DNA of 14,647 bases from Thermoproteaceae archaeon (GCA_020833025.1 JAJHRB010000040.1:1-14647); one strand, 5' to 3'; positions 1-14,647 are shown, counted from the first letter of the stretch. Notes: generated by a model from the sequence alone, not told the origin. Numbers and translations: made by a program.

Positions 1-2
1 CG

Positions 3-884
3 GGCCGCGGCGTTCTCGTTGACGCCCCTAGGCGCGAGCTCAGGGTAAGGAAGCTCGGCACTGGCACGATCGTCCTGCCGCTAGGCGAGAGCGCGGTGAG
101 GTGGGTTCTTGAGCGCGTGAGGGAGGGAGCGAGGCTGGTCCTCGCAATGGTGTGGGTGGAGGGCGGCATGTTACGCGTCGCGCTTGTCTTCAGGCGCGAG
201 GTGGAGCCCGTCGAGCCAAAGCGCCTGCTCGCGGTGGACCTCAACGCGCTGCACAACGGCATCGCGTGGGCCGTTGTGGAGCGAGATAGGGTGCTAAGGC
301 GCGGCGCGCTGAGGCCCCATCTGCGCAGACTAGAGAAATTGCAGCGCGAGATAGCCAGGCTCGACTCGCTGTGCGCGAGGAGGGGAGGCCCTCACTGCGA
401 CACGGCAAGAGGCGCGAAGAGCAGGCTCTGGAGACTGCTGGGGGAGTGGACAAAAGAGGCTGCAAAATTCGTCGTCAGGCTCGCGCTGCAGTACAGGGCT
501 GCCATAGTTGTGGACACGCCGGAGAGCGAGTCAATGCAGGAGCTCAAGCAGAGCGGGAGCTACCCCGCCGATAGGAAGGCGTTGCTGAACTTCGGCAGGC
601 TGAGGAGGCTGATTGAGGGGCTGGCCGCATGGCACGGAGCCACGTGCATCGAGGCGAGACTCTACTCAACGCTGTGCCCGCAGTGCGGAACCAAGATGAC
701 GGAGCTGCAAAACAGGCAAGTCAGGTGCCCGAGGTGCGGCATGGAGGCGCGCCGCGACGAGGTGCCGGCGATGTGGGCGCAGAGGAGGCTTGACGGGCTG
801 ATAGGGCCCGCAAATCCCCGCCGCGGCCCCGCCCCGCGATTAGTGAGCGGGGACTCCGGCCCCCGGAGTGCGGCGGGGAGATGA
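3..884 (+). CDS. tnpB: TnpB-like RuvC protein (IS200/IS605 OrfB), 5'-truncated by the window edge
   Basis: The frame of ORF 96..884 is open back to position 3 (GRGVLVDAPRRELRVRKLG...). RuvC-I LLAVDLN (D at 237-239), RuvC-II-position AIVVDTPE (D at 513-515), Zn finger CPQCG...CPRCG and RuvC-III-position RRDE (D at 756-758) occur in TnpB order. Confidence 0.88.
   Translation, partial: GRGVLVDAPRRELRVRKLGTGTIVLPLGESAVRWVLERVREGARLVLAMVWVEGGMLRVALVFRREVEPVEPKRLLAVDLNALHNGIAWAVVERDRVLRRGALRPHLRRLEKLQREIARLDSLCARRGGPHCDTARGAKSRLWRLLGEWTKEAAKFVVRLALQYRAAIVVDTPESESMQELKQSGSYPADRKALLNFGRLRRLIEGLAAWHGATCIEARLYSTLCPQCGTKMTELQNRQVRCPRCGMEARRDEVPAMWAQRRLDGLIGPANPRRGPAPRLVSGDSGPRSAAGR
815..879 (+). ncRNA. 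Candidate omegaRNA/reRNA scaffold or right-end structure overlapping the tnpB 3' end
   Basis: A perfect 10-bp stem TCCCCGCCGC (815-824)/GCGGCGGGGA (870-879) encloses two hairpins, CCCCGC (832-837)/GCGGGG (847-852) and ACTCCGG (853-859)/CCGGAGT (863-869), forming a three-way junction. TnpB omegaRNAs are known to overlap the tnpB 3' end and the element right end. Confidence 0.55.
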
Positions 885-895
885 AAGGGGGCGCA

Positions 896-1026
896 GCTGT
901 CCTTGCCGCCCGAGACTGCGACGTAAATGACGTCTCCCATCTCCACCATGCGGTACCGCCTGATCGTCCAGAACACCCTTCTCTTGTATGCGTTAATGTT
1001 GGCGCCCACAGCGCTGACAGTTTCAA
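896..1026 (-). pseudogene. N-terminal remnant of a TtuA/TtcA-like (TIGR00269-type) tRNA thiolation PP-loop ATPase
   Basis: The minus strand reads YKRRVFWTIRRYRMVEMGDVIYVAVSGGKDS (PP-loop SGGKDS at 913-896) and then runs into IS sequence. An out-of-frame CQRCGR lies just after a TTG at 1026. Confidence 0.78.
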
Positions 1027-1141
1027 GAGTTCTTGAGCTCAACCCTCCCTTGCGGGTTTTAAGACGCTCCTCAATCTGCACTGGCGCGCCAAGCCGGCCG
1101 CGGCTTAAGGCAAGCGTCTAAATACCGGTGCGCGCAGCTCC

Positions 1142-3895
1142 GTGGTCTTTCATTTGCTCCACCCGAGACTCCAGGAGGCTGTCAGGAGGCTCGGGTACTT
1201 GGAGCCCACGCCGGCTCAGCAGGCCGCGATACCGGTAATACTTTCCGGCGCACATGTATTGCTGGCGGCCCCGAGCGGGTCCGGCAAGACCGAGGCTGCG
1301 CTCTTCCCCGTCCTCTCGAGAATGCTGAGCGAGACCAAGACTGGAGGTGCAGTGCGCTGTCTTTACATCACGCCGCTCAGATCCCTAAACCGCGACTTGC
1401 TGAGGCGCGTTTACGCCGTGACAGACGCCATCGGCGTGACAGTCGCCGTCAGGCACGGCGACACCACGGCATCTGAGAGGAGGCTAATCTCGTCGAGACC
1501 CCCCGACGTGCTCATAACCACGCCGGAGTCGCTGCAGATACTACTCCTGCACCGGAAACTACGCCAGAGCCTCAGGGGAGTTAGATACGTGATAGTTGAC
1601 GAAGTGCACGAGCTCGTGAACAGCAAGAGAGGTGCCCAGCTAGCGCTGGGTCTCGAGAGGCTTGTAGAGCTGGCCGGCGAGTTCCAGAGAGTAGGTCTCT
1701 CGGCGACTGTCGGGGCGCCGGAGCTCGTCGCGGCGTTTCTCGGCGGCGTGGGCAGGAGGGTGGAGGTAGTGAGCGTCTCGGCGAAGAAGCACTACGAGAT
1801 CAACGTAGTGCTCCCCACGCCGTCTGACGGGGACTTCGCCGACGCCGAGAGGCTAGACGCGACGCCGGAGGCTGTGGCGAGGATCAAGAAAGTTGTCGAG
1901 CTCGTGAGGCAGGCGGGGGGCTCTGTCTTAGTGTTCACGAACACGAGGGACGGCGCGGAGTTCCTCGCGTCGAGGCTCAGGAAAATTCTCGGCGACGTCA
2001 TTGAGGTGCACCACTCGTCACTCTCCAGGGAGCATAGGGTGTCCGTCGAGGAGAGGCTCAGACGCGGCGAGCTAAAGGCAGTTGTCGCCACGTCGAGTCT
2101 CGAACTGGGAATTGACATAGGCGAGATAGAGCTGGTGATCCAGTACGGCTCTCCGAGGCAGTCCTCCAGGCTTCTCCAAAGAGTCGGGAGGGGCGGGCAC
2201 AAAGTGGGCGCGATCTCGCGGGGGGTTATTGTCGCGCTTGACTTTGAGGACTACTTAGAGTCAAAGGTCATAGCCGAGAGGGCAGCAAGGGGGGAGCTCG
2301 AGGCTGACATTGAGTATCACGAGAGCGCCCTTGACGTGCTGCTGCACCAGGTCGTTGGCATGGCGCTTGAGGCGAGGCTGGACGGGCGGGAGTTGACTGC
2401 AGAGGGCGTAATGCGCGCCGTCAGGAGGGCGCACCCGTACAGGAACGTAACCGAGGAGGACTTACGCCTCGTACTGGACTTCGCCGAGAGGCACGGGCTG
2501 CTCCGGGGGCTTAGGCCAAGGCGCGGCAGCGTGAAGTATTACTTTGAGAATGTTTCCGTGATACCAGATGGCAAGAGCCTCAAGGCTGTTGACGAAACGA
2601 CGGGAAGGGCCGTCGGCGAGCTCGACGAGGAGTTCGTGCACTCGCTGGAGCCGGGCGCGAGGATAGTGCTCTCCGGCAGGGTCTGGACGCTGACGAGGCG
2701 TGAGGGCGATGTGGTGTACCTGTACCCCGACTATGACGTACGGGGGGCCGTGCCGGCGTGGCTCGGCGAGCAGATACCCGTGCCGTACGAGGTAGCGCGC
2801 GAGGTCTGCGCAAGGCGCGCAGCGGCTCTCCGCGACGCCCTCGCCAGCCGCGCCGAGGTGCCCGTGGATCTGGAGGGCCTTGCAGAGGATCTCATACCAA
2901 AGCCGGGGATGCTCCACATTCACGTCGTGGAGAGAAGGTATGCCGTGATTCACAGCTGTTTGGGATCCAGGGGAAATGAGGCGCTCGGCATGTACCTATC
3001 GCACGCGCTCTCGGCGTATGCCGGGCCCGTGGGGTACAGGTCAGACGCATACAGGGTGCTCCTAATATTCCGCGAGCGCGCCGTCGTGGACGCAATTATC
3101 GAGCTCTTGAGGAGGCCGCAGCACTTCATTTACGCGACGCTGAGAAATGCTGTAAGGAGCTCAAGATTGTTTGCATACAAGTTCCTGCAGGTTGCCAGGA
3201 GGGTTGGCATTGTCAGCAGAGATGCCGAGGAGGTCCCCGCGAGACTCTACGAAGCCTACATAGACGACTTGCCGGGGCTGGAGGCCGTGAACGAAATATT
3301 TGTCGAGAGACTTGACGTGATGGCGTTAATGTCGCTAGTGGAGGGAGTCTCGAGCGGCAGGATGCAAGTCGCCGTCAAGAGACTCGCGAGGCCGACCGCG
3401 CTCGAGAGGCCGGTGCTCGAGGAGGCCCTGCGCGCGGACTTTGCATTCCGCGGCCTCTCGAGGGAGGCCCTCGCAGACCTCGTGAGGAGGCGCATATATA
3501 GCAGGCAGGTAACGCTCCTGTGCCTCAATTGCGGGTGGGCGCTGACAGTGAGGGCCGCGCTGCTTCCCGACGACGTCCGCTGCGCGCAGTGCGGCTTCAG
3601 GGCACTGGCAGTTGTCAAGGGAGTCGACCTGGAGACCGCGAAGCGCGCGCTGAGCAAGTTTAAGCTGCGCCAGGGAATGAGTAAGGAGGAGAGGAAGGTG
3701 CTGGAGACTCTCAGGCAGAGCGCGTCAATAGTGCTCGCGCACGGGAGGCTGGGGGCTCTCGTGCAGCTAGCACATGGCGTGGGCCCGAGAGCTGCCATCA
3801 AGGTGCTTAATAGAGTGAGCAGCGGGGAGGACCTCTGGGCGGCGATAATGGAGGCAGAGAGGCAGTTCGCCGCAACCCGGGGCTTCTGGAGCTGA
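1142..3895 (+). CDS. lhr: Lhr-family SF2 (DEAD/H) ATP-dependent helicase with C-terminal Zn finger, 917 aa
   Basis: Motifs Q (PTPAQ), I (APSGSGKTEAA), Ia (YITPLRSLNRD), II (DEVH), III (SAT), HHSSLS, V (ATSSLELGIDIG), VI (QRVGRGGH), YHESALDVLLHQ, and C-terminal CLNC...CAQC. Confidence 0.95.
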   Translation: MVFHLLHPRLQEAVRRLGYLEPTPAQQAAIPVILSGAHVLLAAPSGSGKTEAALFPVLSRMLSETKTGGAVRCLYITPLRSLNRDLLRRVYAVTDAIGVTVAVRHGDTTASERRLISSRPPDVLITTPESLQILLLHRKLRQSLRGVRYVIVDEVHELVNSKRGAQLALGLERLVELAGEFQRVGLSATVGAPELVAAFLGGVGRRVEVVSVSAKKHYEINVVLPTPSDGDFADAERLDATPEAVARIKKVVELVRQAGGSVLVFTNTRDGAEFLASRLRKILGDVIEVHHSSLSREHRVSVEERLRRGELKAVVATSSLELGIDIGEIELVIQYGSPRQSSRLLQRVGRGGHKVGAISRGVIVALDFEDYLESKVIAERAARGELEADIEYHESALDVLLHQVVGMALEARLDGRELTAEGVMRAVRRAHPYRNVTEEDLRLVLDFAERHGLLRGLRPRRGSVKYYFENVSVIPDGKSLKAVDETTGRAVGELDEEFVHSLEPGARIVLSGRVWTLTRREGDVVYLYPDYDVRGAVPAWLGEQIPVPYEVAREVCARRAAALRDALASRAEVPVDLEGLAEDLIPKPGMLHIHVVERRYAVIHSCLGSRGNEALGMYLSHALSAYAGPVGYRSDAYRVLLIFRERAVVDAIIELLRRPQHFIYATLRNAVRSSRLFAYKFLQVARRVGIVSRDAEEVPARLYEAYIDDLPGLEAVNEIFVERLDVMALMSLVEGVSSGRMQVAVKRLARPTALERPVLEEALRADFAFRGLSREALADLVRRRIYSRQVTLLCLNCGWALTVRAALLPDDVRCAQCGFRALAVVKGVDLETAKRALSKFKLRQGMSKEERKVLETLRQSASIVLAHGRLGALVQLAHGVGPRAAIKVLNRVSSGEDLWAAIMEAERQFAATRGFWS

Positions 3896-3956
3896 CGCCC
3901 CTTTCGGCGGCCCCGAGACGCCGCTAGGCCTCCCGGGCGGGGCCGGCTGACGCGCC

Positions 3957-4388
3957 TCAGCCAAGGCCCTTGGACTTCAGAAACTCCTCGAAGACTTGCC
4001 TCGCGCGCTCCGCGAGCGGGCCCGCGCCCTCCACTCCTATCTCGCTGACGCGAACCTTATCGCCTATCACGACAGTATTAGTCTCCTCTATGTACTTCAC
4101 CATGCCAGGGAATATCCTCTCGGCATACTTTGCGAACTCCCGCATGTCTATCCTCCTCTCAATGCTGTCTATGTGCACGACGAATCTGTGCATTACGAAG
4201 ACGCGCGTATATCTCTCGCCGGTCTTGCTCACGGCATTTGCGAGCGCGATGTTGAGCTGGCTGTCTACTGCGTGCAGCACTCCTCTGTAGACCTCTCCCG
4301 TGGAGAGCACTACCTGGACCTCCCGCCCGATCATGCTGTTGAGTTCTGCCACGAATCGCTTGCTGGATTCCGCAAGGGTCAGAGCCAT
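3957..4388 (-). CDS. Sm-like archaeal protein SmAP3 (Lsm fold plus C-terminal extension), 143 aa
   Basis: Sm1 motif (IGREVQVVLSTGEVYRGVLHAVDSQLNIALANA), Sm2-like RVFV, and a C-terminal domain ending VEGAGPLAERARQVFEEF, as in crenarchaeal SmAP3. Confidence 0.92.
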   Translation of the reverse strand: MALTLAESSKRFVAELNSMIGREVQVVLSTGEVYRGVLHAVDSQLNIALANAVSKTGERYTRVFVMHRFVVHIDSIERRIDMREFAKYAERIFPGMVKYIEETNTVVIGDKVRVSEIGVEGAGPLAERARQVFEEFLKSKGLG

Positions 4389-4410
4389 GAAATTCCCCAG
4401 GTGCTCAAGG

Positions 4411-4417
4411 TTATAAA
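4411..4417 (-). promoter_or_regulatory. TATA box of the SmAP3 gene
   Basis: TTTATAA on the minus strand, 23-29 nt upstream of ATG 4388, which fits a leaderless transcript. Confidence 0.65.
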
Positions 4418-4530
4418 GTTGGCCTAGAGCTGTCGGCGCGGCGACGGAACGCCGCGGGGATGTGCTCCCCGAAATGTGGACTCTGAAGGGGGTCTCAACG
4501 GCGCGCGATCCCTAGCCGGGGACGTGGCGA

Positions 4531-4848
4531 TCACGCAATGCCGATATACACCTTCTCTCCGATCCTAAGTGGCAGCTCTCTCATTATGTCTAGCTGCAAG
4601 CCCCCGATGGAAATTCTTGTCATGCTGCTGTTCACATGGTAGACCACGCCCCATGCGTACACCCTAAACTTGCTCTTGTAGTCCGGATCCTTCTCTTTCT
4701 GAATGACCAGTCTAACGCCGTCTCCCGGGGACAGCTTAATGCCAAGGAGCTCTAGCGGCAGCTCTATCCTAACGTCAGCATCGCCCTTGAGGGTGATGAC
4801 ATTTGGTAGGTCGTTACTCACGCTCTCCACGACGAGAGAGAACTCCAC
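4531..4848 (-). CDS. rpo8: DNA-directed RNA polymerase subunit Rpo8 (RpoG, Rpb8 homologue), 105 aa
   Basis: Small beta-rich protein with YAWGVVY...ISIGGLQL...VYIGI, matching the Rpb8/Rpo8 signature YxxxGxxY...ISxGGLL. Confidence 0.78.
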   Translation of the reverse strand: MEFSLVVESVSNDLPNVITLKGDADVRIELPLELLGIKLSPGDGVRLVIQKEKDPDYKSKFRVYAWGVVYHVNSSMTRISIGGLQLDIMRELPLRIGEKVYIGIA

Positions 4849-4867
4849 GGAGAGCGGGAGCCTGTCG

Positions 4868-4882
4868 CTAAAAAGTTTTTAG
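4868..4882 (-). promoter_or_regulatory. AT-rich palindrome: probable rpo8 TATA element and/or thermosome T-tract terminator
   Basis: CTAAAAA-G-TTTTTAG is a perfect 7-bp inverted repeat, about 20-34 nt upstream of GTG 4848 and about 30 nt downstream of the thermosome stop. Confidence 0.5.
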
Positions 4883-4912
4883 TTCTTTGCTAGCCTGGAG
4901 GCCGGCTGCCGC

Positions 4913-6571
4913 CTAGTCGAGCTCCCCCGTTTTCTTCTCCTCCTCCTTCTTCTCCTCTTTCTCCTTCTCTAGCTTCGACGCGGCGATTATCTCGTCAATT
5001 CTCAAGATCATTGACGCGACCTCCACCGCCACCTTAAGCGCGTTGAGCTTGACCGATAGCGGCTCGATGATGCCGAGGGACATCATGTCGACGACCTTGC
5101 CCTGATACACGTCGAGGCCGTACTTCCAGCCGTCAGACTGCTCGTGCCTGTGCCTCAGCTCGGTGATTATATCAATTGGGTCCAGGCCGGCATTCTCGGC
5201 AAGCGTCTTGGGTATTGCCTCTAGGGCCCTTGCAAATGCCTCTATTGCGTACTGCTCCCTGCCGCCAACCTTGGACGCGTAGCCGAGCGCAGCCCTGGCG
5301 GCCTCTACCTCGGCTGCGCCGCCGGCCGGCAGGATGTACGGCTCCTCGATCACGTCGGCCACCACAGACAGCGCGTCGTCGAGATTGCGCTCTGCCTCGT
5401 CAACGAGCCTCTCAAAGCCGCCCCTGACTAGTATCGATACGGCCCTCGGGTTCTTGCACTGCTCGACGAATACCATCTTCTCGTCGCCAACGCGTCTCTC
5501 CTCGACGAGGCCCGCGAAGCCGAGGTCGGCCTCAGTCAGGTCCTCAATACTTGTCACCAGGCGGGCGCCGGCCGCTCTCACTAGCTTCTCGATGTCGCTG
5601 CGCTTCACCCTTCTCACGGCAAGGATTCCGGCCTTTGCCAGGTAGTACTGCGCTATATCGTCAATCCCCTTGGTCGTGAAGACGGCATTCACGCCGAGAG
5701 ACTTGAGCTTCTCGACGTAGCCTCTGAGGATTTTCTCCTCCTCCTCCAGGAATGCCCTGAGCTGGCTCGGATCGTTAATTCTGATCTCAGCATCTATTTC
5801 GGGCTTCTCAACCTCAAGCGGCGCGTCGAGCAGCGCTATCCTGGCATTAATTATGCGCTTTGGCATTGCCGCATGGACCACTTCCTTGTCGATGACAATG
5901 CCGTAGACAAGCTGCGTGTCGAGCAGAGACCCGCCGTGCTTCTTGACGATCTGTATATTGTCCAGGTCGACGTACCACTTCTCTCCTCTCTCCTCGGCCA
6001 CCTGTAGCACTGCCTTGACGGCAATGTCGGTGAAATACTCCTTGACCGTCTCGCTTATCTTGCCGCTCATTGCCGTCATCGCTATCTTCTTCAGCGTGTC
6101 GACCTCGTTGCGTGACGTCGGCACGGCAATCTTGCGCAGGTGCTCGGTCGCGACGTCGAGCGCCCTCTTGTAACCGCTGACTATCACCGTGGGGTGAATA
6201 TTCTTCTCGAGAAGCTTCTCGGCCTCCTCCAGCAGCGCGCCGGCAAGGACTACGGCAGTTGTGGTGCCGTCGCCGGCCTCCTCCTCTTGCGACTTGGCAA
6301 TCTCGACCATCAGCTTAGCTATTGGGTGCTGGACGTCCATCTCGTCCAGTATTGCGGCGCCGTCGTTGGTTATCGTTATGTCGCCTAACGAGTCTATTAG
6401 CATCTTGTCCATGCCCTTAGGTCCTAGAGTCGTCCGGAGGACCTCCGACACAGCCCTGGCAATCATTATATTAAGCCTTAGCGCCTCCTTGCCGTAAGCC
6501 CTCTGCGTGCCCTCCTTGAGCACTAACACAGGGACGCCGCCAATCTGCGTCAGTATTGCCTGGCTGCTCAC
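4913..6571 (-). CDS. ths: Thermosome subunit (group II chaperonin, beta-like); start probably GTG 6571 rather than ATG 6589
   Basis: [29 protein letters not shown] equatorial motifs and a charged C-tail. The TATA at 6592-6599 abuts ATG 6589 but lies about 24 nt from the in-frame GTG 6571 ([21 protein letters not shown]). Confidence 0.97.
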
Positions 6572-6591
6572 GCCCTTTACAAACGCCATGC

Positions 6592-6599
6592 ATATAAAA
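6592..6599 (-). promoter_or_regulatory. TATA box of the thermosome gene
   Basis: TTTTATAT on the minus strand. Confidence 0.65.
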
Positions 6600-6630
6600 A
6601 CGTTTCCCCGTCTCTGCTGCCGGTAAAGTA

Positions 6631-6636
6631 TTTAAG
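6631..6636 (+). promoter_or_regulatory. TATA box of tRNA-Glu with a purine-rich BRE-like upstream sequence
   Basis: GGTAAAGTA-TTTAAG, about 26-31 nt upstream of the tRNA 5' end, divergent from the thermosome promoter. Confidence 0.65.
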
Positions 6637-6661
6637 AGATTGCCGCCCCTGGGTCAACCGG

Positions 6662-6756
6662 GCCCCGGTAGTCTAGCCCGGTCAAGGGCGCGGTCCGGCC
6701 ATGGATGCGGGCCTCTCGAGCCCGTGACCCGGGTTCAAATCCCGGCCGGGGCACCA
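6662..6756 (+). tRNA. tRNA-Glu(CUC) with a 17-nt non-canonical intron at position 21/22 (6686-6702) and encoded CCA
   Basis: Acceptor GCCCCGG/CCGGGGC, anticodon stem CGGGC/GCCCG with loop CT-CTC-GA, T arm CCGGG-TTCAAAT-CCCGG, ACCA end. Removing 6686-6702 restores the D arm GTCT-AGCCCGGTCAA-GGAT. A central helix GGTC/GGCC is flanked by 3-nt bulges AAG and ATG (BHB-like). Confidence 0.95.
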
Positions 6757-6787
6757 ACCTCCCGCCGGTCCTCAATTCTGTAAAGCG

Positions 6788-6825
6788 ACGCCTTTGCATC
6801 AACGGCGCGCCGCTTCCAAAGGCGT
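6788..6825. repeat. Nested inverted repeat downstream of the tRNA (terminator-like or att-adjacent hairpin)
   Basis: ACGCCTTTG (6788-6796)/CAAAGGCGT (6817-6825) encloses the perfect palindrome CGGCGCGCCG (6803-6812). Confidence 0.5.
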
Positions 6826-6897
6826 TCCAATCTTTTGCAACGGAAAGTTTCCACCTCTGTGCCACCAGTGTGCCAACACCAGCGAGCCGGCAAGCCG

Positions 6898-7752
6898 CTA
6901 GGGCCCCGCTGGCGCCCCGCCGGCTTGCTCGCCGCGCTGCCCGTCCCTGCAGAGCCCCCTCAGGAGCGCGTTCAACTGACTTTTTTGCACGACGCGGTGG
7001 GCAGCGAACTCAATTGCGTAGCGGAGCGCCCTGCTCCTGGCATCCAGCCAGGCGTCTCGCGCTGCGGCGAAAAGCGCCGTGTAAACACTATCATACAGTT
7101 CAAAATAGTCCACCAGATCGTCAACGACGAAGCGCGGCCCCTGCCTGAGTAGCGAGGAGAGCAGCAGGGGGTCTCGTATGTGCCTGGCAATGTGTTTTTT
7201 CAGATATTCGGCCAACTCTCCCGGCCCCGCGCCGACGTAGACGTCGCCCCCGGCGCCGTCGCTGTACACCGCGCAGAGCGCCAGGAGCTCGTGGTCGTCG
7301 AAATACGCGAGCGCGGCCGCGAGACAGCGCCGCGAGAGCTCTAGGGCCCTGTCCAGAGTTTTGGCCGGCCGCGCGTCCCCGCGGGGCTCTCTACACTGCT
7401 GTTCAGCCTTGAAAAGCGCTTTCAGCTCTCGCGACACGAGCAACATGTAGACGTGGGCGTTCCTCTCGCCGAGCCGGCACACCCTGTCCCCGGCGGCGCT
7501 CACGGGAAACAGTTCAATGTAGCTGTTTACTACGGCGGAAAGCCGCACCTCCAGCGACCTCCTGTTGGCGCGGGGGTCGCAGGCCTGCGCAAGCCTGAGG
7601 ATCTCGCCGAGGAGCGCCGCCCTCTCGACGCACTCCCCCGGCTTGAGGATGTGCCTCGCGGCGGCCAGTGTGAACTCATCCAGCGTGCCCTCTGCATAGA
7701 TTTGGCACAACCCGGCGGGAGTCTCCCCCGTTTGACGGCGCTCAGCTCCCAC
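6898..7752 (-). CDS. Hypothetical protein, about 284 aa; start probably GTG 7752
   Basis: Long open frame with protein-like composition. TTTATAA on the minus strand (7782-7776) lies about 24-30 nt upstream of the in-frame GTG 7752. No family recognised. Confidence 0.7.
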   Translation of the reverse strand: MGAERRQTGETPAGLCQIYAEGTLDEFTLAAARHILKPGECVERAALLGEILRLAQACDPRANRRSLEVRLSAVVNSYIELFPVSAAGDRVCRLGERNAHVYMLLVSRELKALFKAEQQCREPRGDARPAKTLDRALELSRRCLAAALAYFDDHELLALCAVYSDGAGGDVYVGAGPGELAEYLKKHIARHIRDPLLLSSLLRQGPRFVVDDLVDYFELYDSVYTALFAAARDAWLDARSRALRYAIEFAAHRVVQKSQLNALLRGLCRDGQRGEQAGGAPAGP

Positions 7753-7916
7753 AGGGTTTTTACAAAGTTCCAACATTATAAACTCTCCGGCGCGGGACGG
7801 CGCCCGGCGCGCCGTCAAAAAGCGGCGCCAGCAGGAAGCCGCGCCGTCAAACGGCGGCCCCGTTATCAGAGCGCGCCGTCAAAAAGCGGCGCCGCCCGCC
7901 GCGGCGCGCCGTGAAA
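7731..7916. repeat. Phased GCGCCGTCAAA repeat array (iteron/operator-like)
   Basis: Direct copies start at 7809, 7841, 7873 and 7906 (the last is GCGCCGTGAAA), with spacing 32/32/33 bp. A perfect inverted copy is at 7731-7741 and a partial inverted copy at 7796-7803. An exact 23-bp duplicate occurs at 7807-7829 and 7871-7893. Confidence 0.88.
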
Positions 7917-7954
7917 GTAGAAAACGAGAAAAGCCCGGCGCGGTAGTTGGGGGC

Positions 7955-8344
7955 ATGGAGCCCGAGAGGAGACCCGGAACGGCCGCAGTCGCGCCGGTGC
8001 CGATCCCAGCAATCCCCGCCCGCGTTATCAACATGGACAGATTTGGCAGCAAGATAGAGATATCGCTAAGGCCGCCCGCCCACTGGCTGCACAAGATCCG
8101 GCCGGACGCCCGGCACTACGACGCCGTCCTGCTGCTGCCGAACGGGGTGGCGTACTTCGCGCAGCTGACGCTCCACAGGATCACGCGCGGCGGGATGTGT
8201 CTCTTCTACGTCAGGCGCCCCGCCAGCAAGGCAGTCGCCGAGGTGCTGAGGGCAGCGGAGGCGAAGTACATCGGGGTTCTCGACATAGTGCCGAGCCCGC
8301 CGCTGGAAAGGGGACAAGCCGCAGCAAGTAGGCGGCGCCCATGA
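7955..8344 (+). CDS. Hypothetical small beta-rich protein, 129 aa; first gene of the overlapping operon
   Basis: ATG preceded by a G-run; its stop overlaps the next start (ATGA at 8341-8344). It shows weak similarity to the ORF at 14397. Confidence 0.68.
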   Translation: MEPERRPGTAAVAPVPIPAIPARVINMDRFGSKIEISLRPPAHWLHKIRPDARHYDAVLLLPNGVAYFAQLTLHRITRGGMCLFYVRRPASKAVAEVLRAAEAKYIGVLDIVPSPPLERGQAAASRRRP

Positions 8345-11271
8345 CGGGGGCGCCCGCGGCGGCGCTCGCGGGGGCCCGAGACTCCGTACAGGGCCGCGCC
8401 GCCCCGGCCGCCGAAGTGAAGGAGGATTTAAACGCTGCGCTCGCGGGGGAGCGGGGCGCCGGGACGAAAAATGGGGGGAGTCCCTCCCCGGGGGGCGCGC
8501 TGCACGCGGCGCCTGCACGGGGCGCGCACGAGCCCAGCACAGCTCCTGCACAAGCCCTGCACGCGGCGGGGGAGCAGGGCGCGGGCTGCAAGTGCAGGGC
8601 CGCGTCGCGGCGCCTTGTAGAGTGTAAATGCACGGCGGAGAGCGGCGAGGAGGTAGCGGTCTCCGTGGTGGTTGAGCTTGAGTATGGCTACCGCGTGATA
8701 ATCAACGGCAAGACCGCCGTGAGGGCCGAGAGTCTCGCCGCAATCAAGGTGCTGGAGCCCCTGGAGAAAGCCGGCGTGCCCGACCCAGAGGCGCTGGTGA
8801 GAGAGATTGAGAAGCTTCTTAGAGAAGCAAAACGGAGGGCCCGCGTCTCATGTAGAATGGAAAGCGCCGCGCCGCCCACGATAACCTGCCGCGTTGAGAA
8901 CGAGACGCTTGTCGTTAAGCGGGTCGGCGCCGAGTGGTACCTTGTCGAGCCTTACGTGAGGAGAATAGGGCGGCGCTTGAGCCTTGCCGCCGTCGCGGCG
9001 ATAGCGGAGAAATTCCTCGTAATGCCCGAGCGACTGTACGCCGCACTTGCAGAGGAGATCGGCGAGGTGTGTCCCGAGGCGTGGCGCGTTGTGTACTTCC
9101 ACCCCGCCCACGACTACGTCGAGGGCCTCGGCCCCGTTCTCGGCGTGAGGTACACGAGCGGCGAAAGGGAGCACTTCGGCTACGTCTACGTCAGGGACGG
9201 CAGGCTGGAGCTGGCGGACGTCGCCGCGCCCGTCAAGGATGAGGACGCCATGATCATCTACCGCCCCGCGGTCTCCGACCTCCCCAGCATAAGCGGCGTC
9301 CGCGTGTACTTGCCCGACTTCGTCGAGATTCTAGAAGCGTGGAGGGAGGCGCCGACGTTTGCGGGCGTCGCGCGCGAGGCGGAGACGTACATCCGGAGCC
9401 GCGTGACGGCCCCCGACGTCGACGTCAGGTTCGCAACTGCGTTCATCGTTACGTCGCACTTCTTCGTCGTTGCGAGCTATTACCCGGCCTTCGTCATCGG
9501 CAAGCCCGGCTTCGCCGCTGGCGGCACGACGGCGGCAAAGGTTCTGGCGGCGCTCATGCCGAGACCCGCCGTCCTCCTGGATCCCTCGTGGGCGTCGCTA
9601 TTCAGGGCGGCGCACATCTTTCGCCCGACGTATCTTATAGATGAGGTAATCATGGAGCTCGGCGACGAGGCCCTCCGGAACATCCGCCTGTACCTCGTCG
9701 CGCGGTTTGATCAAGACATGTCAGTGCCGAGGGCGGACGATGGCGGGGCACGCCTCGGCACCTATGTTGTGTACTCCAACGCCATCATAGTTGACCCGCA
9801 GGGTCTCGTTGCAAATCTGGCCGTTGTGAGGCGATCACCGCGCGTCGTTCTCTGCCCTGACCCGAACCGGCGGGAAATTATCACCATAAAAAAAGAGCTG
9901 GAGAAGCCTGAGGTCAGGCGACTCGCCGCGAGACTCTACGCGCTGTTCTTGCGCCACGCGGCGGAAATCAAGGCGGAGTACGACAGGGTGGGCGAGATCT
10001 TCCCCTGCCGCGGCGCCGTCCTGCAGGGCTTCGGGCTCCTGCTCCTCGTGGCGAGGCGCATGGGGCAGGAGTACTTAGACGCCGTGGCGGCTAAGATTCG
10101 CGAGTGGGTTGATGAGGTAGGCCTGATGTATGTTATCGGGGATCCTAGTAAATTGGTCTTGGCCAAGGTGCTGGAAGACATCGAGAACCTCGAGGCTTAC
10201 GTCCGCGCGCGGCTCTCGCCGGAGACAGGTTGGTTGACCCCCGAGTCCGTCAGCGGCTCCGAGCCGCCGAAGCCGTGGCGCGTCGACGTCGAGGGCGGGC
10301 GGGTCGTCCTGTGGACGTATTTAGAGTCCTGGCGCAAATACTTACAGCACGCGCTGGGCGAGCTGAAGCAGGTCAGCCGGCGGAAGGGGACTGGGGAGGA
10401 GACGGAGTGGGTGGACACGAGGGTCAGGGACCTGGGCCCAGCGCTCGATCGGAAGGCCTTCGCCGCGTTGCTAAGACCATACCTCTCACACGTTTTGAGA
10501 CGCGAGGAAACTCGGCGGAACCTTAGAGTCGCTTTCACCTCGCTTGACGACATCGCGAGAGCAAGGGAGGCCCTGAGGAGGGCGCTGCCGGAAGGCAGTC
10601 TCGCCGCGTGCCCGCCCGAGCCGCAGCCGGCGGGAGAGACACGCCCCGTGCATGAGTCACCCGCGCCGGGTGCAGAAACAGTGCAGTCCTCGTGCACGCT
10701 GGGTGCGCCGCCGCGTGCAAGCGCCGAGTGCAAGGCTCGGGGGGAGGAGGGGGAGGGGCATGAAAACACTGAGAGCGGCGGGAGCGGCGCCGCCGCCCCG
10801 CCAGCCCCCGCTGCCCAGCAAGAAGCTGCCACCTCCGCACGGCGCGGGCGCGAGGAGGAGACACCGCAAGACGAAGAAAGGGCGAGGGAGGAGCTTGAAC
10901 GCTTTATCGCGGAGCACGCGGCGGGCCGGTCTCCCTCCCCGCCGGCCGTGGCGCCCCCGGGCGCGAGTGCCGAGGAGAGCGCGCGTGCACGGCACGAGGA
11001 CAGAGTTGAGCGGTGCAAGGCGAACATAATTTGCTGGAACCGCTTGCAGGTCTGCATCTGGCGCGAGCTGAGGGGCTCCCCGGAGGAAAAGAAGAAAGCG
11101 GCGCTGGAGGAGCTGGAGAGACAAGGCGAGCTGTTCCGCAAGTGTCTCGCTGACGCGGAGGAGTATGCCGAGAGGGAGACAGGAAGGGGCGGGAGCTCCG
11201 AGAGCGGCGGGATCAGGAAAATGAGCGCGAGGGAGGTGATAGGACGAGTCAGGAAACTGCTCGGCCTGTGA
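8341..11271 (+). CDS. 976-aa multidomain protein with a degenerate P-loop NTPase domain (MGE replication helicase-like)
   Basis: Walker A-position GKPGFAAGGTT (9499-9531), P(S)WASLFR, Walker B TYLIDE (9631-9645), VPR and a late VVRRS. This order and spacing resemble the P-loop domain of primase-associated MGE proteins, such as those with DUF3631. Confidence 0.75.
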   Translation: MTGAPAAALAGARDSVQGRAAPAAEVKEDLNAALAGERGAGTKNGGSPSPGGALHAAPARGAHEPSTAPAQALHAAGEQGAGCKCRAASRRLVECKCTAESGEEVAVSVVVELEYGYRVIINGKTAVRAESLAAIKVLEPLEKAGVPDPEALVREIEKLLREAKRRARVSCRMESAAPPTITCRVENETLVVKRVGAEWYLVEPYVRRIGRRLSLAAVAAIAEKFLVMPERLYAALAEEIGEVCPEAWRVVYFHPAHDYVEGLGPVLGVRYTSGEREHFGYVYVRDGRLELADVAAPVKDEDAMIIYRPAVSDLPSISGVRVYLPDFVEILEAWREAPTFAGVAREAETYIRSRVTAPDVDVRFATAFIVTSHFFVVASYYPAFVIGKPGFAAGGTTAAKVLAALMPRPAVLLDPSWASLFRAAHIFRPTYLIDEVIMELGDEALRNIRLYLVARFDQDMSVPRADDGGARLGTYVVYSNAIIVDPQGLVANLAVVRRSPRVVLCPDPNRREIITIKKELEKPEVRRLAARLYALFLRHAAEIKAEYDRVGEIFPCRGAVLQGFGLLLLVARRMGQEYLDAVAAKIREWVDEVGLMYVIGDPSKLVLAKVLEDIENLEAYVRARLSPETGWLTPESVSGSEPPKPWRVDVEGGRVVLWTYLESWRKYLQHALGELKQVSRRKGTGEETEWVDTRVRDLGPALDRKAFAALLRPYLSHVLRREETRRNLRVAFTSLDDIARAREALRRALPEGSLAACPPEPQPAGETRPVHESPAPGAETVQSSCTLGAPPRASAECKARGEEGEGHENTESGGSGAAAPPAPAAQQEAATSARRGREEETPQDEERAREELERFIAEHAAGRSPSPPAVAPPGASAEESARARHEDRVERCKANIICWNRLQVCIWRELRGSPEEKKKAALEELERQGELFRKCLADAEEYAERETGRGGSSESGGIRKMSAREVIGRVRKLLGL

Positions 11272-11588
11272 TGCTGCCAAGCTACCGTATCGCGCTTGCG
11301 GTCGCGAAGTATCTCTGCCGCCACCTAAGCGCGGGAATCTTCAGGCTCGTCGACGACATCGTCAGGGACCCCTCGCTGCTGCCCGTCCTGGCGGGGCTCG
11401 GCGCTGTTGAGACCGTCGGCGGCGTGCCCGCGGCGCCGAGGCCGGGAGCGCCGGGGTGGTGGCGCGCCCACGACGCCGTGCTCGACGCCGTGCTCTATCT
11501 CGAGGCCAGGGGCGTCGCCAAGTATCTGCCTGACGTGGGGGTGGTCAACTGGGCGGGCAGGCCGTGCGCTCCCGGCGCGCGGCCGTGA
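11268..11588 (+). CDS. Hypothetical protein, 106 aa, possibly winged-helix
   Basis: Overlaps both neighbours by 4 nt. The C-terminal VLDAVLYLEARGVAKYLPDVGVVNW resembles a wHTH helix plus wing. Confidence 0.65.
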   Translation: MMLPSYRIALAVAKYLCRHLSAGIFRLVDDIVRDPSLLPVLAGLGAVETVGGVPAAPRPGAPGWWRAHDAVLDAVLYLEARGVAKYLPDVGVVNWAGRPCAPGARP

Positions 11589-12733
11589 GCGCCATCACCC
11601 TCAGCGGCCTTTACGGCTTCGCGGATCTGTACGTCAGGGGCAGGCTGGCCGAAGAGTTTGCTAGACAGCGCGGCGTCGCGCCGTGCCGCGAGTACGGCGC
11701 GCCGGCGAGGCTCGGCCTCGTCTGCGACGGCGGGGAGCTCGTCCGGCTGATCCTCGAAGCAGAGAGGGGGCGGCTCAAGAGGGGCGGCGGCCCCAACCAC
11801 CTCTTCATCAGCATGGCCCTGGTGGACTGGCGGCTGTACCACGACCCGCAGGCAAGGCCGCAGTCGTACGTCGCTCTCGACAGGGCGTGCATCGACCTGG
11901 ACATCCCTGCTGAGTGCGCACAGGACAAGTGGTGCCGGGCCGCCAGGCTCGGCAGGCTGAAGGCCGCGCTGCGGGAGAAGCTCCGCAAGTATAGGGACGT
12001 CCTTTGGGCCGAGTGGACCGGCTTCAAGGGCTACCGCCTATGCGCGTGGCTCCCGCGCCTCCTGCCCGCGGACAGGGCGGTGCTGGAGAGGATACAGCTC
12101 TGGCTCGCGAGGGGGCTCGAGGAGTGGCTTGACCGCCACGCCGTCGGCGACGTAAAACGGCTGTTCCGCGTGCCGTACTCAATTAACCCCAAGTCGGGAG
12201 ACAGGGCTGCCATCGTCGACCACCTGCTCGAGGAGCTGTCAGCGCGGGAGACGGCAGAGCGCCTAATGTCGCTAAGGCCGCTCGACGCGCGCGTGCTCGA
12301 CAGGCTCGCGCGGGAGGCCGTTCTCGAGGCGTTCGCGAGGGAGCGCGGGGCGCGCGAGGCCAGAAGGCCGGGGGGCCGCGCGGCGGGGAGGCTCCCGCGC
12401 TGGATCCAGGCGCTGATCGAGTACATGAGACAGACCGGCAACCTGTGCCACGCCGCGCGCGTCGCGGTGGCGCGCTGGCTTTACTTCGCGGGATACAGCC
12501 GCGAGGAAATCATTGGGGTCTTCAGGGCGGCGGCGGACTTCGACGAGAGGAAGACGGCCTACCACGTCGACTACGAGATAAGGCGCATGGGCGAGGAGTG
12601 CCGCGCGTGGCAGCCCGAGGAATGCAGGGAGAGACCGTGGCGCTGCGAGACGGTAGTGAGGACGTGCGAGGGCAAGAAGGTGCCGCCGAGCCTGCCGGAG
12701 CTGTGCCCGGGGCGCCGTGAGGACGTGCATTAA
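11585..12733 (+). CDS. Archaeo-eukaryotic primase: PriS-like catalytic domain fused to a PriL C-terminal-like domain; start probably GTG 11585
   Basis: Motif I IDLD (11891-11902), motif II TGFKGYR (12017-12037), motif III GDVKRLFRVPYSINPKSG (from 12146). The C-terminal LPRWI...GNLCHAARVAVARWLYFAGYSREEIIGVFRAAADFDERKTAYHVDY...PWRCET...C matches the PriL-CTD pattern. GTG 11585 overlaps the upstream TGA. Confidence 0.85.
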   Translation: MSAITLSGLYGFADLYVRGRLAEEFARQRGVAPCREYGAPARLGLVCDGGELVRLILEAERGRLKRGGGPNHLFISMALVDWRLYHDPQARPQSYVALDRACIDLDIPAECAQDKWCRAARLGRLKAALREKLRKYRDVLWAEWTGFKGYRLCAWLPRLLPADRAVLERIQLWLARGLEEWLDRHAVGDVKRLFRVPYSINPKSGDRAAIVDHLLEELSARETAERLMSLRPLDARVLDRLAREAVLEAFARERGAREARRPGGRAAGRLPRWIQALIEYMRQTGNLCHAARVAVARWLYFAGYSREEIIGVFRAAADFDERKTAYHVDYEIRRMGEECRAWQPEECRERPWRCETVVRTCEGKKVPPSLPELCPGRREDVH

Positions 12734-13277
12734 GGTCCTCAGGGAGCTCGAAGAGGCCGCCCGCCGCTGGAACCTCGGCGCGGTCAAGGAGCTGGTGCGG
12801 GAGGCCGCCAGGCGCTGCGGGCCGGGAGAGCTGCGGGAGGCCCTCGCCGCGAGGGTCGCACCGGCGCTCGCGGAGGCGGCGCTCAGAGTTGCGGTGGAGC
12901 TGTACAGGCGGCTCGAGCCGGCGGTGGGCCGGGGCCGCGCGCTGGAGGCGGCGCTCGAGGAGGCCTCCGGCAAGCTGGCGCGTCTCGAGTCGCCGTGCTG
13001 GCTGGCGGAGGCGGCCGCGAGGGCCGTGCCGCAGGCGCTCGCGCGGCTGGGCTGGGAGGGGCCGAGGTGGCCCTTCGCCGCCAGGCTGCTGGTGACCCTC
13101 CACCTCGACTGTGGCGGCGTGCCTGACGGCGTGCTGGAGGCGTTCGGCCCCGAGGAGGCGGCGGCAATACTGTCATTCCTCGAGGAGGGGGCGGCCGTCC
13201 TCGACGCGGGCCCCGCGCCCGTGGCGCTGTACTCGTCGCGTCTCCTGCTGCGCGGCGGGCGGCGGTCACGGCCGTGA
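12717..13277 (+). CDS. Hypothetical Ala/Glu/Arg-rich helical protein, 186 aa
   Basis: Overlaps the primase stop by 17 nt and closes the operon. No family recognised. Confidence 0.65.
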   Translation: MRTCIKVLRELEEAARRWNLGAVKELVREAARRCGPGELREALAARVAPALAEAALRVAVELYRRLEPAVGRGRALEAALEEASGKLARLESPCWLAEAAARAVPQALARLGWEGPRWPFAARLLVTLHLDCGGVPDGVLEAFGPEEAAAILSFLEEGAAVLDAGPAPVALYSSRLLLRGGRRSRP

Positions 13278-13341
13278 CCCCGGCGCCCGGCTCTGCCTCC
13301 GGGCGCGCGCATGTGCTTTCTCTAGTCTCCACGCCCGGTGC

Positions 13342-13492
13342 CCGGTGGTTAGCGTGGTGAGCGTGTTGAGTCTCCGAAGCCCTTGGCAGATATTGAAAAA
13401 TGGGCGGCAAATGTCGAAACCGCTCTCCCGGCTGGCATCGACTCAAGTAAAGCGCAAAGGGGACTAACCACTATCACCGCGCTAACCACCGG
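13342..13492. repeat. 31-bp imperfect inverted repeat, each arm CCGG plus three 9-bp units, flanking an 89-bp spacer
   Basis: Left arm 13342-13372 reads CCGG TGGTTAGCG TGGTGAGCG TGTTGAGTC. The reverse complement of 13462-13492 reads CCGG TGGTTAGCG CGGTGATAG TGGTTAGTC (26/31 identical). Confidence 0.85.
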
Positions 13493-13638
13493 CCGCCGTG
13501 GAGCTGGTCGTGGCTGTTCTTCTATTGCGCGCTTGCCGCCCGGTGGCCGCGGGCCGGCGCGCGCCGGAACCGGCCGGTTCTCGCGCCGCGCGCCAGAACC
13601 CCCGAGTGGCTTATCAAGCCGGAACCACCCCTTGCGGC

Positions 13639-14271
13639 GTGGCCCTCCGCCTCGTGGCCTACGTCCGCGTCTCGCGGGAGGACGAGCGGCCGGAGAACCA
13701 GGAGTTCGCGATATTCCGCTGGGCGGCAGAGAGGGGCCACCAGATAGTCGAGGTCGTGAGGGACGCTGGCATCTCCGGCGCGCTGCCGCCTAATGAGAGG
13801 CCCGGCTGGCAGAGGGCCATGGAGCTGCTCGGGCAGGCAGACGGCGTTGTCGTCTACGCGCTGGACCGCGTGGCGCGCAGCCTGTGGGACCTGGCGCAAG
13901 TCGTCAGGGAGCTCGAATCAAAAGGCAAGCTGCTGATATCCGTGCGAGAGGAGTGGCTGCAGCAGCTGGACCCGAGGGTGCGCCAGCTGATTGTCGGCAT
14001 TCTGGGCTGGGCCGCCGAGATGGAACGCGAGTTCATCCGCGAGAGGACGCGCGAGGCGCTGGCCAGGCTGAGGGCAATGGGCAGGCGCGTGGGCAGGCCC
14101 CCGAGGTGGAGCGAGACGCTGCGCCGCCGCATAATCGACCTCGTGAGGAGGGGCATCACGCTGAGAGATGCCTGCAGGCTCGTGGGGGTAGGCTACAGGA
14201 CGGCGCTCAGGTACCTCAGCCGCGACCCGGAGTACCTCAAGGCGAGGGCCGAGGCGAGGCTCAAGGGCTGA
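13639..14271 (+). CDS. Small serine recombinase (resolvase/invertase type) with C-terminal HTH, about 210 aa
   Basis: Catalytic YVRVS, D-x-G-I-S-G, RPG, LDRVARS, the E-helix AEMEREFIRERTREALARLRAMGRRVGRPP, and HTH GITLRDACRLVGVGYRTALRYL. TTATCAA at 13611-13617 supports GTG 13639 rather than 13498 as the start. Confidence 0.93.
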   Translation: MALRLVAYVRVSREDERPENQEFAIFRWAAERGHQIVEVVRDAGISGALPPNERPGWQRAMELLGQADGVVVYALDRVARSLWDLAQVVRELESKGKLLISVREEWLQQLDPRVRQLIVGILGWAAEMEREFIRERTREALARLRAMGRRVGRPPRWSETLRRRIIDLVRRGITLRDACRLVGVGYRTALRYLSRDPEYLKARAEARLKG

Positions 14272-14396
14272 GCCTGCGGGGAGGGAGCACGCCTCCTGTC
14301 GGCGGAAGTGCATCTCCTCACCTCTCGGCAGCACAGCAACTCGCCACCGCCAGGAGGGCCGCGCGCCAATTTAAGCGGCGCCGCGCCCATGCCGGC

Positions 14397-14647
14397 ATGC
14401 CGCGCTACAGGCCGATAGTCATCAAATACCCCCTGCCCTGCGCGCTGGCGCGAATCATCAAGTGCGGCGACAGGGAGCACCCCTGGCAGATGTGTCTCTC
14501 GCTGGCGGGCCCGTCGAGAGAGCTCGCCGAGCTGCTCGTGCAGACGCGGCGGGTGACCCTGTACGTGGCCGTGCGGGAGAGGCTCTACGGCTGGCGCGCC
14601 CGCCTCTGCCGCGTTAAGAGACACGTGTATCAATTCTGCCTGCTGGC
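14397..14647 (+). CDS. Hypothetical protein, 3'-truncated by the window; absent from the supplied ORF track
   Basis: ATG 14397 lies about 22-27 nt after TTTAAG (14370-14375). The frame stays open to the end: MPRYRPIVIKYPLPCALARIIKCGDREHPWQMCLSLAGPSRELAELLVQTRRVTLYVAVRERLYGWRARLCRVKRHVYQFCLL... Confidence 0.72.
   Translation, partial: MPRYRPIVIKYPLPCALARIIKCGDREHPWQMCLSLAGPSRELAELLVQTRRVTLYVAVRERLYGWRARLCRVKRHVYQFCLL

Follow-up and report, generated by a model that had tools for sequence, protein, structure and literature searches.

Among described systems, pXZ1 of Sulfolobus islandicus (6,970 bp, NC_010365), an integrative pRN-like plasmid, is a small crenarchaeal replicon with a tRNA-Glu gene as its integration site (PMC8371274). 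It has an SSV-type integrase (PMC2926602), lacks a pRN1-type RepA (PMC2926602), and encodes a Rep protein of 1,077 aa in which an archaeo-eukaryotic primase (AEP; RepB_primase-like) domain is fused before the helicase; Soler et al. grouped the N-terminal polymerase region of this Rep with RepA of pTN2, pP12-1, and pTIK4 (PMC2926602). Actinomycete integrative elements such as pMEA300 have the RepAM initiator, DUF3631, which is often paired with a Prim-Pol gene (PMC3218068). An AEP domain and a PriL-like C-terminal domain are found in one chain in PolpTN2 of the Thermococcus plasmid pTN2 and in the PriS–PriL fusions of Nanoarchaeota/DPANN (PMC3973330, PMC3914693), and the cryptic integrated elements of Thaumarchaeota are tRNA-integrated, have an integrase and a replication module, and lack recognisable genes for virions or conjugation (PMC6563490). 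For the genus Pyrobaculum, a 16.9-kb element of P. oguniense is the only extrachromosomal element reported in the searchable papers (PMC3558965). Here we describe a locus on a contig from a Thermoproteaceae archaeon. The window, i.e. the whole stretch of 14,647 nucleotides that was analyzed, is the complete contig C115 of a 126-contig, 1.56-Mb metagenome-assembled genome (MAG) with a G+C content of 62.6%, and its part 6757–14647 is, with good confidence, the ~8 kb nearest the tRNA of a mobile, plasmid-like element that is integrated in a Pyrobaculum species and belongs to a family of 8–12.5-kb elements.

We found no description of this family in the literature searchable here. The family appears to be new, and its kind is known from crenarchaeal integrative cryptic plasmids (pXZ1 and integrated pRN-type plasmids), the Thaumarchaeota cryptic elements, and actinomycete integrative and conjugative elements with RepAM and Prim-Pol. 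Its most unusual points are the P-loop of the helicase and the iterons embedded in a gene. As C115 is the entire window, the right edge at 14647 is the end of the assembly and not that of the element. The main features of the window are:

6662–6756, + strand: tRNA-Glu(CUC), CCA encoded (ARAGORN with introns; Rfam tRNA, 54 bits)
7955–8344, 8341–11271, 11268–11588, 11585–12733, and 12717–13277, + strand: five overlapping operon genes, with the junctions, in order, ATGA, GTGA, GTGA, and a 17-nt overlap
8341–11271, + strand: 976-aa Rep helicase-like protein, AAA+ core at ~9313–10125
9502–9531, + strand: non-canonical P-loop K388-P-G-F-A-A-G-G-T-T397 (protein numbering from 8341)
9640–9645, + strand: Walker B D434-E435, kept in nearly all of 150 aligned relatives
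11585–12733, + strand: putative single-chain primase, AEP plus PriL C-terminal domain, the PriL-type Fe-S-type domain at ~12350–12661
primase motifs (numbering from 11564): I, D111xD113; II, G153xK155GYR158; III, D190...R202xP204
13639 (likely start)–14271, + strand: small serine recombinase, 210 aa, VRVSRED N-terminus, C-terminal helix-turn-helix (HTH)

An earlier note on this DNA had read the region as a self-contained replication module of an integrative replicon: directly after tRNA-Glu an orphan gene, a phased repeat array, five overlapping genes with the junctions given above, an inverted 3x9 array, and a serine recombinase. All of these parts were recovered where the note had placed them, and its overall reading is supported, with the corrections that the integrase would be a tyrosine recombinase encoded beyond the end of the contig and that the serine recombinase is probably an accessory enzyme of resolvase/invertase type.

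The host genes at 1–6589 comprise a partial TnpB, an Lhr-type helicase, an Sm protein, and the thermosome. The thermosome gene showed 73–79% DNA identity to its counterparts in 17 other species of the genus, and close homologues of the window proteins carry the NCBI label ‘MAG: Pyrobaculum sp.’. The tRNA-Glu(CUC) gene has a 17-nt intron at 6697–6713 when ARAGORN is run with introns allowed; the default call without introns, Gly(GCC), ignored the intron and was replaced. In three congeneric genomes (G016, G011, and G007), a host gene, homologous to 13050–13767 of contig C72 of our MAG, follows the orthologous tRNA-Glu(CUC) within ~70 nt, and their homology to the window stops at 6753–6761, the 3′ end of the tRNA. 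tRNA-Glu(CUC) is the probable integration target, with the attL crossover predicted somewhere in its 3′ part.

The 976-aa helicase was present in one of the 17 other species of the genus, and its family profile had matches in only 3 of 120 Thermoprotei species genomes, this one included; the element is therefore accessory. The possibility raised in the earlier note that these are syntenic core genes present in all relatives fails on these counts and on the empty tRNA-Glu sites of the three congeners. In comparison with metagenome relatives, the ratio of nonsynonymous to synonymous substitution rates (dN/dS) was 0.15–0.32 for the helicase, the primase, the 106-aa gene, and the recombinase, and the genes are under purifying selection.

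The host side of the tRNA is also rearranged. The tRNA and the thermosome gene are here 72 nt apart (window 6590–6760), and in congeners (L046, L047, L049, and L009–L017) they are separated by ~4–5 kb of genes, the homologues of which are found at C89:51400–51800 and C1:14100–16200 of our MAG.

The structure of complete elements was examined in five bounded relatives, two in the congeneric genome G006, one on contig C12 of our own MAG, and two on metagenome contigs:

L022 (G006): after tRNA-Gln, with a second copy of the 26 nt at the tRNA 3′ end at a distance of 8.2 kb
L023 (G006): at tRNA-Ser, 61-nt direct repeat
C12 element (own MAG; L024): from tRNA-Ser to an 83-nt repeat, 10.8 kb
L028 and L033 (metagenome): tRNA-Ser(GGA), shared repeats of 40–41 nt

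The whole element is present in three of them (the two G006 loci and the one on C12). All five loci lie between direct repeats (26–83 nt) that correspond to the 3′ part of a tRNA gene, and each carries, at its tRNA-distal end and adjoining the distal repeat, a gene for a tyrosine integrase of 406–440 aa with matches to Pfam Phage_integrase, the archaeal Phage_integr_3, and an N-terminal HTH. The integrase open reading frame (ORF) of these relatives is full length in the integrated state, which sets them apart from pXZ1 with its SSV-type integrase. The integrase gene of the C12 element spans ~0.6–1.8 kb beyond the point equivalent to the last base of the window, and since it begins ~0.6 kb past that point, the lack of an integrase and attR in the window is most simply explained by a break of the contig. 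The check proposed in the earlier note, a repeat of the tRNA 3′ end together with an integrase, thus came out positive in the five related loci and does not apply to the window contig itself, which ends first. In L028 (4778–4817) and L033 (5770–5810), the called integrase gene and the att repeat start at the very same base, so that the first ~13 codons of these genes are antisense tRNA-Ser sequence.

Loci L028–L038 share the gene order 129-aa-like gene, helicase, small genes, primase, ~180-aa gene, and recombinase, and in L030 a tRNA-Glu(UUC) gene directly follows the recombinase gene. The relatives also carry variable cargo, including an nSTAND-like gene and a gene for a 397-aa ATPase. The parts of the window element have different nearest relatives: the helicase core is nearest to L033 and L031 (65%), but the C-terminal tail of the helicase (residues 871–946), the nonamer region, and the recombinase are nearest to the C12 element (74–91%), so co-resident elements evidently exchange modules, as judged from these identities. 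The large protein of the C12 element (1,198 aa) is unrelated to the window helicase, the helicase tail is common only to contig C12, and it showed no match to the 100–117-aa gene that follows the helicase in relatives.

The 976-aa protein consists of an N-terminus with a conserved CxC...CxC motif, a beta-rich N domain, an MCM/Cch-like AAA+ core, a winged-helix-like C part, a low-complexity linker, and the C-terminal tail. The gene caller had placed its start at residue 109 (868-aa form; window 8341–8660 is concerned). The ATG at 8341, with the ATGA overlap, or a nearby start is more likely because the protein is conserved with L033 from residue 49 on, the CxC...CxC motif included. An AlphaFold2 model built on 55 relatives had a predicted local distance difference test (pLDDT) score of 84.5 and a predicted template modelling (TM) score of 0.79. 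A Foldseek search with this model returned the SCCmec Cch helicase (5dgk) first, followed by MCMs and the NrS-1 helicase region. VIA gave a Z score of 15.3 to Cch over 345 residues (model residues 144–636) and of ~15 to MCM AAA+ domains over ~240 residues (model 217–487; root-mean-square deviation 3.6–3.9). The order of N-terminal beta domain, AAA+ core, and C-terminal winged helix that characterizes MCM and Cch was found in the model, according to which the protein has an MCM/Cch-like AAA+ fold and would be expected to act as a helicase. Cch (DUF927) resembles the window helicase also in that it sits in an integrative element with serine recombinases; the identities to Cch and MCM are 7–12%, and Cch is described as an active helicase, whereas the window protein has a glycine at the position of the Walker A lysine.

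At the sequence level, the helicase family profile matched no chain in the PDB. The profile search collected 2,820 related proteins, and in its distant members the domain comes after a primase domain (RepB_primase, Prim-Pol, DnaG-Toprim, or DUF3854) and shows overlap with DUF3631. The ESM Atlas returned Thermoproteota proteins and also bacterial and phage proteins that have the fold behind DUF3854 or Toprim primase domains and carry DUF3631; the window protein itself does not reach Pfam DUF3631. The 24 metagenome homologues at ~70% identity are all unnamed and devoid of Pfam domains. Among 72,556 plasmids searched by tblastn, the helicase matched pXZ1 only, its core being 25% identical (BLASTP 9e-25) to residues 432–826 of the pXZ1 Rep, and the primase matched none; neither had a match in 50,697 phage records (tblastn), and IMG/VR gave no match. 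A match to a described plasmid or virus family along the whole length, which the earlier note had named as a finding that would contradict it, was thus not obtained, the only partial match being that to the pXZ1 Rep core. The claim that the replication module cannot be assigned to a named family held in that no described family matches; it did not hold entirely, because the helicase groups distantly with the pXZ1 Rep and with the primase-associated AAA+ proteins of the DUF3631/RepAM type. The helicase thereby ties the unexplained Rep of pXZ1 to the actinomycete RepAM (DUF3631), to the Toprim-DUF3631 phage primases, and, by fold, to MCM/Cch.

The lysine of the Walker A sequence GK[ST] is lacking in the window helicase, where the position is occupied by Gly395 (G-G-T-T). 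In the profile alignment, the distant members have G-K-[ST], whereas the 976-aa protein and ~50 close relatives, including the pXZ1-like Reps, have G-G-[ST], and the G-G-[ST] sequences all have a lysine seven residues upstream (K388 in the 976-aa protein). The central 400 residues of the pXZ1 Rep are homologous to the window helicase core, and the two have the P-loop K-x-G-[FY]-x-x-G-G-[ST] in common. The remark in the earlier note that the helicase is atypical was therefore correct, and the exchange of lysine for glycine is a trait of the whole close clade. The alignment suggests that the ATPase may act through the relocated lysine K388, and R498, which is invariant in 55 sequences, is a putative arginine finger. 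The clade-wide swap of the Walker A lysine to glycine together with a new upstream lysine poses a concrete biochemical question. The helicase N-terminus showed a weak alignment to the part of the pXZ1 AEP domain that contains motif II (E 5e-4, one pair). A remnant of an AEP domain is possible there, and we treat it as a lead only; the fold search hardly extended to the N-terminal 140 residues.

The longest ORF of the primase starts at 11564 (389 aa), and the protein is thus 382–389 aa in length. The start at 11585 is the most likely one because the homologues align from there, and it gives the third GTGA junction. AEP motifs I and III are invariant among the homologues, and motif II keeps its glycine and lysine. 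The family profile matched the catalytic core of the Marinitoga CRISPR-associated Prim-Pol (PDB 7nqd, 1e-6). Residues 263–366 matched PriL (NCBIfam 2.4e-14; Pfam DNA_primase_lrg, PF04104, 7e-7), and the model of this part had a pLDDT of ~90 for residues 280–345. The position of the first Fe-S ligand reads PRW in the primase versus PPC in the host PriL, and six other cysteines are nearly invariant. From its motifs and profile matches, the protein is probably an AEP primase fused to a PriL C-terminal domain, and it would be expected to have priming activity. With 37.5% identity between its PriL part and the PriL of the host (contig C19), the primase is a candidate for the capture of a cellular replication domain by the element. 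Comparison with the AEP domain of pXZ1 by hhalign gave a probability of 7%, and we therefore claim no specific relationship between the two.

The recombinase gene product has the N-terminal catalytic domain with the active-site serine and the C-terminal HTH of the small serine recombinases. It matched Pfam Resolvase (4.9e-33) and HTH_23 (3e-5) and the PHROG DNA invertase (3.6e-40), and its match to the NCBIfam model of Mpi-family invertases (3e-18) was under the cut-off of the model. The protein is 85% identical to the C12 copy and 80–82% identical to those of L033, L030, and L031. L022 has the att repeats and the integrase but no serine recombinase, and in L028 the recombinase gene is split, which argues that the recombinase is accessory and that the tyrosine enzyme is the integrase. 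The serine recombinase is probably a resolvase or invertase, not an integrase.

Three sets of repeats were found in the window, the GTGCA set having an inverse CTGCAC counterpart:

7805–7916 (starts 7805, 7837, 7869, and 7902), divergent promoter region: four phased 32–33-bp units with a CGCGCCGTCAAA core
8497–8583, 5′ low-complexity part of the helicase gene: CTGCAC motif array, the inverse of the 3′ GTGCA array
10648–10728 (within 10648–10780), inside the helicase gene: six GTGCA motifs plus one GTGCG, ~11-bp phase
13336–13384 and 13450–13498: inverted arrays of three nonamers (TGGTTAGCG-like), the nonamers at 13342–13370 and 13463–13492

The phased units are spaced by 32, 32, and 33 bp; two of the 23-mers are 100% identical, and copies 1 and 3 are palindromic 23-mers. 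The relatives carry other repeats at the same place (e.g. three 47-nt palindromic units in L022), and the units are thus candidates for an element-specific operator or iteron set. The GTGCA motif occurs six times per 90 bp, as compared with at most three times in 500 first-order Markov simulations, and the array is followed by a G-run and an A-rich patch (to 10780). In L033, L030, and L031, homologous GTGCA arrays are present at the 3′ end of the helicase gene and a second time in the non-coding DNA that precedes the recombinase gene, which argues for a function at the DNA level. The array is a candidate origin or set of Rep-binding iterons.

The two inverted nonamer arrays are separated by a spacer with an AT patch at 13390–13401. 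The region is 91% identical to C12 7995–8310, and C12 has a second, diverged copy at 5502–5637. The arrays are a candidate res or inversion site or an origin, and by position they are the best candidate for the site of the recombinase. In three relatives, the iteron/nonamer region is present twice in direct orientation: L033 (10266–10394 and 14667–14795), L030 (1655–1724 and 5320–5389), and L024 (C12; 5502–5637 and 8085–8240). The duplicated copies flank the primase module and lie beside the serine recombinase gene; site-specific recombination between them could delete or exchange that module.

The element shares features with each of the described systems and differs from all of them. In comparison with pXZ1, which is likewise a small integrative crenarchaeal replicon at tRNA-Glu, the primase is encoded by a separate gene and has a PriL C-terminal domain, and no CopG or PlrA homologues were detected in the window. 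The window proteins also had no match to Pfam Prim-Pol, pRN1_helical, ribbon-helix-helix, or PlrA, by which the pRN family (pRN1, pRN2, and pSSVx) would be recognized. RepAM elements are, like the window family, tRNA-type integrative elements with a primase-associated AAA+ Rep and often a separate primase gene nearby; unlike it, they come from bacteria and rely on FtsK-like Tra proteins for transfer. PolpTN2 exceeds 900 aa and has PriCT-1 and winged-helix domains, as compared with the 382–389 aa of the window primase, which showed no sequence match to PolpTN2 or to the fused primases of Nanoarchaeota/DPANN (no plasmid match). The Thaumarchaeota elements are of the same kind, but they belong to another phylum and have no gene families shown in common beyond the integrase superfamily. 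For the known Pyrobaculum and Thermoproteus viruses and the 16.9-kb P. oguniense element, the tblastn searches of the phage and plasmid collections with helicase and primase gave only pXZ1, the presence of the P. oguniense record in these collections being unchecked.

Several results weigh against the reading as an integrated plasmid-like element. The integrase and attR of the window copy were found neither by tblastn of the whole MAG with three family integrases nor by blastn with the tRNA 3′ half, so that this copy could be truncated or immobile, and no circular or free form was seen, the related contigs having no terminal overlaps. Three repeat sets compete for the role of origin. The ATPase activity of the helicase is not assured because the canonical Walker A lysine is absent, motif II of the primase has Arg or another residue in place of His, and the AlphaFold2 model of its N-terminal, catalytic domain was poor (pLDDT 30–65). 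Several genes have no assignable function, and they may thus include virion or transfer functions. If they do, the element could be a provirus or a virus satellite, either with virion or packaging functions among its small genes or packaged by a helper virus in the way that SSV packages pSSVx; pRN-type plasmids such as pSSVx can be packaged (PMC2926602), several conserved genes are without a detectable family, and the cargo of the relatives (nSTAND-like and 397-aa ATPase genes) is variable. Against this, PHROGs gave no structural or packaging match apart from the recombinase HTH, no relative was found in phage records or IMG/VR, none of the 69 CRISPR spacers of the MAG (arrays on C47 and C89) matched the element or any related locus, and the conserved core consists of integrase, replication genes, and recombinase only. 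We consider this explanation unlikely.

It is also quite improbable that the locus is a decayed, immobilized remnant that has lost its integrase and attR and has kept its genes by chance or domestication. The missing integrase and attR, the integrase remnants on C19 and C69, and the synteny around tRNA-Glu, which is rearranged in comparison with the congeners, would fit such a remnant, but the operon genes are all intact with overlapping junctions, dN/dS is low (0.15–0.32), and an assembly break remains the simplest explanation in view of the C12 integrase. A search for attR by way of the congeners' gene downstream of tRNA-Glu (C72:13050 in our MAG) failed, the neighbourhood being rearranged in the MAG, and the integrase matches elsewhere in the MAG were genes of other elements (C12 and C17) and remnants (C19 and C69) only. 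Finally, the serine recombinase is the sole recombinase within the window and lies beside a repeat-rich site, and one might suppose that it is itself the integrase and the inverted arrays its attachment site. Serine integrases have a large C-terminal domain. The window protein is of the 210-aa resolvase/invertase type with a C-terminal HTH and is too short for such a domain (which was not searched for), the nonamer arrays are unlike a tRNA, and the tRNA-repeat-bounded relatives always carry the tyrosine integrase, even where the serine recombinase is absent or split; we regard this supposition as very improbable.

As an integrated plasmid-like element, the locus may work as follows. A tyrosine integrase with an N-terminal HTH, encoded beside attP at the tRNA-distal end, would recombine attP with the 3′ part of the tRNA gene, and integration would leave the 26–83-nt direct repeat that is seen in the relatives and predicted for the window copy. 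The excised circle would replicate by means of its own operon, i.e. the beta-barrel protein, the AAA+ Rep helicase, one or two small proteins, and the AEP–PriL primase, with the phased 32-bp units, the GTGCA iterons, and the inverted nonamers as putative operators or origins. The serine recombinase, as its type and its absence or decay in relatives suggest, may act on the inverted nonamers as a multimer resolvase or invertase.

A more far-reaching combination of these points is conceivable, although we hold it only tentatively. The family would then be the first autonomous plasmid-type replicon family for Pyrobaculum/Thermoproteales, and in its Rep clade (including the pXZ1 Rep) the Walker A lysine would have shifted seven residues upstream without loss of ATPase activity. 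The 11-bp-phased iterons would form an origin embedded in the helicase gene, comparable to lambda ori within gene O. In some relatives, the iteron copies beside the recombinase gene would enable the recombinase to shuffle the primase module or to delete it. The group has few known replicons, and a compact one with identifiable Rep, primase, integrase, and a candidate origin could seed genetic tools for Pyrobaculum.

The remaining genes of the window are:

6898–7818, − strand: 292–306-aa gene, divergent from the replication operon; the ATG at 7776 is the more likely start
7955–8344, + strand: 129-aa small beta-barrel protein, first operon gene, 4-nt ATGA overlap with the helicase gene
11268–11588, + strand: 106-aa conserved operon protein; homologues of 142–163 aa in relatives
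12717–13277, + strand: 186-aa last operon gene; weak homologues after the primase gene in L028 and L033
14397–14647, + strand: paralogue of the 129-aa gene, of which the contig end leaves only the 5′ part

The 306-, 129-, 106-, 186-, and 976-aa proteins had no match in Pfam, PHROGs, NCBIfam, or PADLOC. The 292–306-aa protein matched only itself among 5.8 billion clustered proteins, and it is a near-orphan in that a paralogue with 30% identity occurs at the same position on C35; the 292-aa form had no match in the ESM Atlas. Its positional counterparts lie at C12 692–1585, C35 6980–7882, and L038 531–1409. With the 129-aa protein, the ESM Atlas gave generic small beta-barrel matches only (PilZ or FAD-binding-like, TM 0.5–0.6), and the protein is a candidate copy-control or DNA-binding factor. 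The ORF from 14397 is 46% identical to C12 9598–9825, which itself matches the 129-aa protein at E 1e-6.

A second type of element is found beside tRNA-Met (C35 c8005–8081) on contigs C35 (L025 1–8131) and C63 (L026 1–5559) of our MAG. It has the divergent 300-aa/113-aa gene pair and the 106-aa-like gene in common with the window, and its replication genes are instead those for a UvrD-like superfamily 1 helicase (615 aa) and a LigD-Prim-Pol-like protein (587 aa). Integrase genes or remnants are located on C17 (186–1412), C19 (38658–38994), and C69 (879–1004), and C18 has a tRNA at ~17187–17270 and, at 25532–26179, a serine recombinase with 38% identity. Two places in the MAG (listed with C18 and C102 1956–2057) match the 3′ end of tRNA-Glu plus the next 30–70 nt. 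Related elements or scars seem to be numerous in the MAG.

The left end of the window contig (3–884), outside the element, is occupied by the partial TnpB-like ORF (Cas12f1-like TNB domain, 3.9e-9). The CRISPR arrays of the MAG are located at C47 26216–30234 and C89 65936–66556 and have 62 and 10 repeats, respectively, of ~24 nt each. Some of the spacers match contigs of the same MAG exactly or nearly, namely C94 16792–16830, C79 and C16 (43/43), and C6 ~2023–2348 (three spacers), which suggests self-targets or binned foreign DNA.

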